A DNA stretch of 64,000 bases, taken from UHGV virus genome UHGV-0167591; one strand, 5' to 3'. A model generated the notes under the pieces. That model was not told where the DNA came from, searched no databases, and was given only the letters and a program-made list of their open reading frames with translations. Positions 6,013 to 6,709 of the stretch are shown here, one piece after another. Source of the stretch: a virus. How positions within the stretch are numbered: position 1 is the stretch's first letter; each line of letters opens with the position of its first letter. A program made the translations under genes and the position numbers.

Positions 6013-6120
6013 TTACTGTTTACTAAGTGCTTCAATGGCGCTAACAATGCCGCCTACAACTATGGCAACAATGATAATGAGAACAATTGGATACTTGTCA
6101 GCAAAATCCCAGAAGCCCAT
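6013..6120 (-). CDS. 35-aa hydrophobic micro-protein (single transmembrane helix)
   Basis: MGFWDFADKYPIVLIIIVAIVVGGIVSAIEALSKQ; AAGGA Shine-Dalgarno; ATG overlaps the upstream stop (TGATG); ends 3 nt before the tRNA. Confidence 0.4.
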   Translation of the reverse strand: MGFWDFADKYPIVLIIIVAIVVGGIVSAIEALSKQ

Positions 6121-6284
6121 CACTGATCCTTCGAAGCTGTTTTAAATATCGGCCATACCAATGTTACAGCTACTGCTACCAACGCACCGTCGGATAAAAC
6201 CGACAGGACTGTGCTGGTGAAATCCACCAGCACAGATAGCACGAGAAAAACCAAAGCCAGAATTAGACGTGCTTTTATAACCAT
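6120..6284 (-). CDS. 54-aa membrane micro-protein (two predicted transmembrane segments)
   Basis: MVIKARLILALVFLVLSVLVDFTSTVLSVLSDGALVAVAVTLVWPIFKTASKDQ; start overlaps the TerB-like stop (TGATG). Confidence 0.45.
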   Translation of the reverse strand: MVIKARLILALVFLVLSVLVDFTSTVLSVLSDGALVAVAVTLVWPIFKTASKDQ

Positions 6285-6709
6285 CAGATATACTGTTCCA
6301 GTGGCAATTGAAGAGCCTGGGCAATTTTCTTCAATTGCTCCTGCTCTTCTGCCCCAATGCCATCCTGGTCAGCAATATCAATGCATAGGCACAGAACATC
6401 TACCGCATCATTAGTCCCGGACACATCAGCCAGCTCACGTAAAGCCTGGGCATTAGCTCGGCGCGGCGAGGCTTCATATTGAGCGCGAATATTGGCGCTC
6501 ATCTGGGCAATTTCACCGGAGAACGGCGCAAAGGCAGGAAGTGCTGCAATGGTTTTTTCCAATACTGCAATTTCTTTCGCATCGCAGGTGCCGTCAGAGT
6601 ATGCAATGGAATATGCGCCCCAGACGGTCGCTTCCACCGCATCACGGTTTTCCATCTTCTTGACTCCGCCAGCCGCTTTGCGGAATTTCTTTTTGAGAAT
6701 GCCGAGCAT
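6284..6709 (-). CDS. TerB-like domain protein (tellurite-resistance TerB family; P1 tciA-like)
   Basis: 141 aa with paired acidic motifs (AYSDGTCDAKEIAVLEK; IADQDGIGAEEQEQLKKIA) typical of TerB. Confidence 0.55.
   Translation of the reverse strand: MLGILKKKFRKAAGGVKKMENRDAVEATVWGAYSIAYSDGTCDAKEIAVLEKTIAALPAFAPFSGEIAQMSANIRAQYEASPRRANAQALRELADVSGTNDAVDVLCLCIDIADQDGIGAEEQEQLKKIAQALQLPLEQYI

Follow-up and report, generated by a model that had tools for sequence, protein, structure and literature searches.

The tciABC cassette of a P1-like phage-plasmid: a TerB-family gene and two micro-protein genes with overlapping stop and start codons in the ban operon

TerB proteins are encoded in ter operons (terZABCDEF), such as those of the IncHI2 plasmid R478, E. 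coli O157, Klebsiella, and Yersinia. In these operons TerB accompanies the multi-pass membrane protein TerC, and terC has reportedly been linked to tellurite and zinc resistance in one published study. In enterobacteria, YebE (DUF533) and the N-terminal region of DjlA represent a TerB-like domain tethered to the inner membrane on its cytoplasmic side. Segments of the ter operon comprising terZAB cause filamentation of E. coli and Yersinia pestis, while tellurite resistance in Yersinia is conferred by terCDE (PMC4633105). TerB domains have also emerged in the defence systems Shango, Bunzi, and Dionysus, the latter consisting of DinA (a TM protein), DinB (TerB-like), and DinC (a pore former with four TM segments), and TerB has been discussed as an amphitropic membrane-surveillance module (bioRxiv 10.1101/2025.09.30.679545).

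The cassette analysed here, tciA-tciB-tciC (tciABC), is already known from the annotation of the P1 genome record (GenBank AF234172 / NC_005856) and is not a new discovery. Published work on it comprises only names assigned by homology, non-essentiality in lytic growth, and frequent loss. In a genome-wide CRISPRi screen tciA, tciB, and tciC were non-essential for P1 lytic growth (PMC10695390). The genes form one of eight highly variable regions (region 7) in P1-like phage-plasmids and were lost by nearly half of one P1-like subgroup, for which the authors ask about a link to phage inhibition (PMC9603915). A P1vir transcriptome preprint groups tciA, tciB, and tciC with icd and kilA, that is, with cell-division functions, by annotation only. 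Our search of the literature on tciA/tciB, on DUF3927, and on TerB in connection with prophages returned no functional study. The assignment of the tci genes to tellurite resistance, colicin resistance, phage inhibition or cell division goes back only to homology with ter-operon TerB.

We analysed a stretch of 64,000 nucleotides from UHGV virus genome UHGV-0167591, referred to as the window. It is a P1-like phage-plasmid: the first 25 kb share 95-96% identity with P1 and P7, and a megablast search with positions 5600-7700 (2.1 kb) revealed 97.1% nucleotide identity to bacteriophage P1 at 100% query coverage. In the P1 GenBank record the matching region is annotated as tciA, tciB, tciC, tRNA-Ile2, and ban, and synteny with P1 is kept for the position in the ban operon, the flanking tRNA-Thr/Asn and tRNA-Ile2 genes, and the C1 operator (Table 1). 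It is virtually certain that the cassette is tciA-tciB-tciC of a P1-like phage-plasmid and that it belongs to the ban operon, which C1 represses, with a structured RNA leader on one side and tRNA-Ile2 on the other.

Table 1. Features of the tciABC region, with positions counted in the window and - denoting the minus strand
Feature	Position	Strand	Remarks
tciA	6284-6709	-	141 aa; ATG start, GAGG 8 nt upstream
tciB	6120-6284	-	54 aa; start codon overlaps the tciA stop by 1 nt
tciC	6013-6120	-	35 aa from ATG; start codon overlaps the tciB stop by 1 nt
tRNA, anticodon CAT (tRNA-Ile2-like)	5934-6009	-	ARAGORN; Rfam tRNA 64.7 bits; 3 nt 3' of tciC
tRNA-Thr	7442-7517	-	ARAGORN, Rfam, P1 annotation; upstream member of the same operon
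tRNA-Asn	7520-7595	-	ARAGORN, Rfam, P1 annotation; upstream member of the same operon
ban, DnaB-like replicative helicase	4289-5659	-	ORF and P1/P7 annotation; distal, namesake gene of the operon
Structured RNA leader, STnc100/PasD core	6738-6868 (Rfam match 6743-6863)	-	3' end about 30 nt upstream of the tciA ATG
Bivalent C1 operator (Oban), ban-operon promoter	8254-8281	-	ATTGCTCTAATAAATTTATTAGAGTAAT aligns with annotated P1 Obanab

Compared to P1 tciABC, the cassette shows allelic differences only, and it has the same neighbouring tRNAs, ban gene, and C1 operator. TciA is 100% identical to its P1 counterpart (141/141 residues), the seven nucleotide differences all being synonymous, while TciB is 96% (52/54) and TciC 74% (26/35) identical. 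The same genes are found at the same operon position in P7 as terB-upf69.4-upf69.6 and in D6 as orf8-orf7. The exact cassette is present in 169 of 5,426 complete E. coli genomes (∼3%). The cassette proteins match PHROG 632, 1470, and 23152, and these scores, together with those for Pfam TerB and DUF3927 and the overlap of the two genes, identify tciABC as a real, conserved cassette rather than a chance arrangement.

An earlier note, made from the letters of this DNA alone, had described three coupled ORFs of 141, 54, and 35 aa, each start codon overlapping the preceding stop codon as TGATG, with the last ORF ending 3 nt before tRNA-Ile. All three ORFs are present on the minus strand, and both overlaps can be read directly from the junctions ...ATCTGATGGTT... 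and ...TCAGTGATGGGC..., where the last base of the stop codon is common to the next ATG. The distance to the tRNA was given correctly, too. This tRNA with anticodon CAT is named tRNA-Met by ARAGORN, an ileX-like tRNA-Ile2 in the P1 record, and tRNA-Ile by RefSeq/PGAP. The description of the cassette as wedged between tRNA genes applies to the downstream side only: upstream, tRNA-Thr and tRNA-Asn are 733 nt away from tciA, and the gap holds repeats and opposite-strand upl/plp ORFs. tciB has no good Shine-Dalgarno sequence, and its translation probably depends on coupling to tciA. For tciC, AAGGA is found 6 nt before the ATG, and translation from the in-frame GTG codon that directly precedes this ATG would extend the protein to 36 aa.

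Transcription of the cassette presumably starts at the Oban-controlled promoter of the ban operon. The terminator-like hairpin of the P1 'dicF-like' leader is conserved at 8068-8090. A consensus scan of the minus strand from the tRNA genes to ban detected no promoter- or terminator-like site, except for a single match to a promoter within tciC. Most simply, tciABC would share the transcript of the ban operon, which is under C1 repression.

The TerB assignment of the earlier note, for which a profile search had been suggested as a check, was borne out. TciA scores 28.4 bits against Pfam TerB (PF05099; gathering threshold 24.4, E = 2.1e-6), the match falling into two stretches, and homologues of TciA carry a precomputed PF05099 assignment. 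In agreement with this, the AF2 model of TciA (pLDDT 88.9) has the all-alpha fold of the TerB type and matches crystal structures of TerB-family proteins. TciA is predicted to be soluble and cytoplasmic, and it carries a polybasic tail at its N-terminus (net charge +7 in residues 1-19). It exhibits two acidic D-G-x5-E motifs, S-D39-G40-T-C-D-A-K-E46 and D116-G117-I-G-A-E-E122, whose positions are invariant or nearly so across 86 homologues. A sequence search with TciA against PDB chains returned only insignificant centrin/EF-hand-like matches (best E = 0.14). The P1 family contains two types of TerB, which are only 31% identical and each precede nearly identical TciB and TciC proteins; many homologues of the P7-type TerB also match DUF533 (PF04391).

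TciA and the TerB of ter operons share the TerB domain, an all-helical fold, paired acidic motifs, and a membrane partner. However, the partner of TciA is a hairpin of 54 aa instead of the multi-pass TerC, tciABC is phage-borne and translationally coupled unlike the ter operon, and the Pfam score of TciA is only just above the cutoff. Since terZ, terA, terC, terD, and terE are absent from this region of the window and from every related locus inspected, with no terC, terD, terE or terZ nearby, tciA differs from ter-operon terB in its context. With Dionysus, Shango (SngA), and Bunzi (BnzA) the cassette shares a TerB-like protein that is encoded together with membrane proteins. In contrast to these TerB-containing defence systems, the partners in tciABC are micro-proteins lacking recognisable effector domains, and the cassette belongs to phages, its expression being repressed in the P1 prophage. 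None of the three proteins matched a defence model of PADLOC-DB v2 (Shango, Bunzi, and others) at E ≤ 1, and an NCBIfam scan of all three Tci proteins gave no match.

The two short ORFs had been predicted to encode hydrophobic micro-proteins. Both products are indeed strongly hydrophobic (hydropathy maxima 2.96 and 3.52) and conserved in relatives, and the 54-aa protein, TciB, belongs to the curated family DUF3927 (PF13064; 101.4 bits versus a threshold of 25, E = 2.6e-29), residues 2-54 covering profile positions 1-53 of 53. TciB also matches PHROG 1470. It consists of two hydrophobic segments that flank a conserved acidic stretch (VDFT..SV.SDG), and residues D21, F22, T23, S28, V29, D32, G33, and P45 are invariant. 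TciC comprises a single hydrophobic helix and a conserved N-terminal FW..DK.P motif. According to the positive-inside rule, both ends of TciB would lie in the cytoplasm and its acidic loop in the periplasm, whereas TciC is predicted to be oriented N-out, C-in.

The pairing of TerB and DUF3927 is not restricted to P1-like elements. Our comparative set comprised 92 loci encoding a DUF3927 protein, supplied by an alignment scan of viral contigs; a DUF3927-alignment scan of genome contigs, in which the pattern was overly strict, returned one locus. The stop codon of an intact TerB gene overlaps the DUF3927 start codon in 71 of the 92 loci, by 1 nt (TGATG) in 56 and by 4 nt (GTGA or ATGA) in 15. 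Another 20 loci, which belong to a single lambdoid lineage, keep DUF3927 and this arrangement while an in-frame stop codon interrupts TerB, a point against the model proposed below. In total, the layout is found in 91 of 92 loci, in support of an obligate pairing, and one DUF3927 copy is an orphan. Two database 'fusion' proteins, P0015 and P0003, look like frameshift artefacts.

At least four enterobacterial phage backbones that are unrelated to each other carry the pair (P1-like, SSU5-like, lambdoid, and P2-like), the contigs with RNase T, RNase H, and Dam genes being taken to be SSU5-like phage-plasmids. In lambdoid prophages it follows the gene for antiterminator Q and the associated tRNAs and directly precedes the holin genes, and in a P2-like Dickeya prophage it is part of the early operon. 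In a Pseudomonas putida prophage a P7-type TerB gene overlaps (TTGA) the gene for a different single-pass membrane protein of 67 aa. Due to this exchange of the partner, the constant feature is a small TerB protein coupled to a small membrane partner. The position upstream of the holin genes in lambdoids would be in accordance with a lysis regulator or antiholin, but we rejected this function since the genes are far from lysis genes in P1, SSU5-like, P2-like, and Pseudomonas elements.

Upstream of tciA, a structured RNA leader resembles the small RNA STnc100, which occurs in several copies in E. coli O157, is transcribed there (PMC5331693), and is related to PasD (bioRxiv 10.64898/2026.05.13.724894). 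Against the Rfam family STnc100 (RF02076) the leader scores 37.8 bits, below the gathering threshold of 47 (E = 1e-5), the match covering model positions 31-147 of 206; it is not a full-length member of the family, since positions 1-30 and the terminator (148-206) are missing. The same STnc100 match is present in P1 and P7, and with a covariance model built in this analysis the leader scores 115.6 bits. The P1 leader and STnc100/PasD have the closing helix, the GGUGAAU box, and the CCGGG-AGGCA-CCCGG hairpin in common. However, the former is an operon-embedded 5' leader, while STnc100 is a free-standing sRNA gene. The closing helix reads UUGCGGUG/CACCGCAA in P1-like elements versus GCAUGGUG/CACCAUGC in lambdoids, the changes being compensatory, and the stem of the hairpin is either CCGGG/CCCGG or CCUGG/CCAGG. 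For these two helices 99.4% of the cells of a 12-sequence alignment can pair, compared to 29-43% in slid controls. Five of the 13 pairs are changed on both sides, but the four changes in the closing helix essentially represent one split between clades and therefore few independent events. A second STnc100-like copy in the window (7022-7129) is weak and degenerate (13.2 bits, E = 0.28 with our covariance model).

The leader is 97% conserved in P1-like elements without tciABC, and in RCS47 an SPFH/Band_7 membrane protein replaces the cassette between the leader and tRNA-Ile, the tRNA being retained. In ∼22 lambdoid loci a full STnc100 directly follows the TerB-DUF3927 pair. Since the leader persists without tciABC and the cassette is exchanged in RCS47, the slot is bounded by two structured RNAs: the leader is the left edge and the CAT tRNA the right edge of a variable cassette slot. 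The leader may process, stabilise or regulate whichever cassette occupies this slot.

From the parts of the cassette, which are evident, we infer that TciA, the TciB hairpin, and the one-helix TciC rather probably assemble as a small inner-membrane complex. The overlapping stop and start codons would couple translation, so that TciA, TciB, and TciC are made together. TciB would insert as a two-helix membrane hairpin with its conserved acidic loop facing the periplasm, and TciC as a one-helix peptide with its conserved FWDFADK.P end on the same side. TciA could then dock on the micro-proteins and on anionic lipid, the polybasic tail and the micro-proteins serving as anchors. Such a complex would be a split version of the membrane-tethered TerB proteins. 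The anchor of YebE and DjlA lies in the same polypeptide, while the Tci anchor would be provided in trans by TciB and TciC.

As to its role, tciABC is dispensable and frequently exchanged, apparently by horizontal transfer. This accessory module perhaps acts on the envelope, most likely by sensing or blocking insults that arrive through the inner membrane, such as the entry of DNA from superinfecting phages or pore-forming colicins, a tentative proposal that draws on analogy with the defence systems combining TerB and membrane proteins. We also consider a broader possibility, which remains doubtful: that the TerB and DUF3927 pair, joined by TciC in P1-like elements, constitutes a widely exchanged phage moron, swapped in P1-like elements at the RNA-bounded slot. 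It would then work at the inner membrane as a minimal sensor/effector that excludes superinfecting phages or protects the envelope, a phage-borne miniature relative of the TerB defence systems. The P1 operon is C1-repressed and a lysogen would therefore lack expression from the ban-operon promoter, which fits poorly with exclusion by a lysogen-expressed protein. The context of the pair also varies, being early-lytic in P1 and P2-like phages, beside lysis genes in lambdoids, and downstream of a repressor gene in Pseudomonas. Such heterogeneous expression contexts across lineages do not point to a single role and, like the C1 repression, argue against simple exclusion by a lysogen-expressed protein.

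Independent of the function of the cassette is the question whether all three ORFs are real. TciC is its least secure part, with no clear purifying selection relative to the P1 allele. It matches only PHROG 23152 (E = 1e-24), and an exhaustive phmmer search of 1.84 billion representative proteins found no cluster other than its own. The lambdoid, SSU5-like, and P2-like cassettes lack it. PGAP leaves the ORF uncalled and lists just the TerB protein, DUF3927, and tRNA-Ile at tciABC loci. Moreover, tciC departs from the P1 allele at 12 nucleotides, and 9 of these changes alter the protein. These features would be expected if tciC were an untranslated open spacer between tciB and the tRNA, with only tciA, and perhaps tciB, being real. 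We consider this unlikely. The ORF is open in 56 of 56 loci of the P1/P7/D6 type, these being the only ones among the 92 DUF3927 loci in which TciC is found, and it always has the TGATG overlap at its start and always lies just before the tRNA. In the window it is preceded by the Shine-Dalgarno sequence noted above. Every substitution relative to P1 exchanges hydrophobic or small residues. The D6 allele is diverged (37 aa, 26% identity) and unannotated in the D6 record, but is of much the same length and has kept both the hydrophobic core and the FW..DK.P motif. The allele of the window (…IIIVAIVVGGIVSAIEALSKQ) differs from that of P1 but is common, being 100% identical in 26 plasmid records, and altogether 284 PLSDB plasmids as well as RefSeq E. 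coli genomes carry tciC, unannotated in each case.

Two other functions were weighed against a role in envelope protection. In a host takeover, which would block cell division or reshape the envelope, a complex of TerB and the micro-proteins would perturb the divisome or the membrane during lytic growth, and induced cells would filament. The cassette is expressed from an early, C1-controlled operon whose leader in P1 includes the dicF-like region, and the grouping with icd and kilA as well as the filamentation caused by terZAB segments point in the same direction, although the grouping was made by annotation only. Filamentation by ter genes, however, maps to terZ, terA, and terB together, and lethality to terZA, while TerZ and TerA are absent here. 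Since the cassette is, in addition, dispensable for P1 plaque formation and many lambdoid and Pseudomonas copies occupy positions typical of lysogen-expressed morons, we regard host takeover as improbable. Much the same holds for metal or ion homeostasis or protection against chemical stress, for which TciA would bind a divalent cation via D-G-x5-E and modulate the flux through TciB/TciC oligomers or a host TerC-family transporter. Membership in the TerB family, the conserved acidic motifs with their weak and not significant likeness to the EF-hands of centrins (E = 0.14), two invariant Asp in TciB, and the company of TerB and TerC in ter operons are consistent with such a function. Nevertheless, no gene for TerC, TerD, TerE or TerZ is adjacent in any context examined, tellurite resistance in Yersinia needs terCDE and not terZAB (PMC4633105), and the literature searched held no report of a tellurite-resistance phenotype of P1 lysogens. 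Homeostasis of this kind is thus quite unlikely, and tellurite detoxification is less likely than a role of tciABC in envelope exclusion or protection.

As a discovery the locus carries little weight, since the genes have been named since the annotation of P1 and tciABC is a recognised variable region. A practical point is that RefSeq annotation systematically lacks tciC. If the exclusion of phages or colicins by tciABC is true, the cassette would provide a very small and tractable model for the action of TerB at membranes, and the same question stands for Shango, Bunzi, and Dionysus.

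The leader RNA upstream of tciA matches STnc100 below the Rfam gathering score, but two of its helices are backed by covariation, and it is kept in P1-like phages regardless of the cassette that follows it. Further upstream, the leader of the ban operon contains a strong terminator-like hairpin preceded by a conserved C1 operator. No Rfam DicF match was obtained in the ban-operon leader at E <= 1.

Features of the window and of a related prophage cassette
Feature	Position	Strand	Remarks
STnc100/PasD prophage sRNA family core	6738-6868	minus	~30 nt upstream of tciA; without the family's terminator
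Three repeat units, each ~230-280 nt	6852-7441	both	between tRNA-Thr and leader RNA
plp, P1's 'putative lipoprotein' gene	7094-7339	plus	set against phage P1 (L001) 4500-4877
Terminator-like hairpin, strong, GCCCATCTTCGGGTGGGC then T6	8068-8090	minus	ban-operon leader, in P1's annotated 'dicF-like region'
Bivalent C1 operator, conserved	8254-8281	minus	upstream of terminator-like hairpin
Pseudomonas putida prophage TerB cassette	L094 4001-5065	same as S24-type repressor gene	downstream of that gene

The repeat region comprises direct repeats, such as GTAGATTGGGATATGA[AC]CCCGTTAC at 6890 and 7169, together with long hairpins at 7118-7217, 6866-6931 and 7360-7433. Our own covariance model returned a second, weak STnc100-like match at 7022-7129 (13.2 bits, E = 0.28). 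On the minus strand of the region, GGGTTCATATCCC is similar to a tRNA T-arm. In phage P7 a tRNA-like element with a long arm lies between tRNA-Thr and terB (L002 3390-3474, minus strand), which is scored by Rfam as tRNA-Sec at 46.6 bits, slightly below the gathering score of 47, and D6 carries an odd tRNA-Ser(UGA) at the same site. In the window and in P1, by contrast, this site is occupied by the repeat/hairpin region.

The plp reading frame overlaps this region, starts with TTG and is shortened in the window by a nonsense codon to 81 codons, compared to 125 in P1, where it extends antisense into tRNA-Thr. We consider that plp may not be a real gene. Public protein sets also contain TciA-TciB and TciB-TciC 'fusion' proteins (P0015, P0003 and P0167, of 196, 90 and 171 aa). 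These entries look as if the reading frame had slipped by one base where stop and start overlap in TGATG, and are probably artefacts of assembly or gene calling rather than natural fusions. The small gene tciC is left out by RefSeq PGAP in E. coli plasmids, and its homologue in D6 (L012 2131-2244, MMDFWTYIDKNPGWSLLFLLVIVYGVEQVAKNLRRRK) is unannotated in the GenBank record, as is the sequence after it (~2255-2330), which resembles the start of a tRNA with CAT anticodon.

In 20 loci of one lambdoid lineage (IMG/VR contigs within L068-L093) TerB is interrupted by an in-frame stop near locus position 3995, within the first D-G..E motif (…ADGECEAS*KAK…), while DUF3927 is intact and directly followed by a full STnc100. 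In the Pseudomonas putida prophage TerB is coupled, through a TTGA overlap, to an unrelated single-pass membrane protein of 67 aa, and a CsrA homologue comes next.

In P1-like phages without tciABC the slot between leader RNA and tRNA-Ile holds an SPFH/Band_7 membrane protein, represented in RCS47 (L011 2879-3706) by a protein of 275 aa that is annotated as 'serine protease'. The SPFH/Band_7 protein is a second membrane-associated cargo of the tciABC slot.
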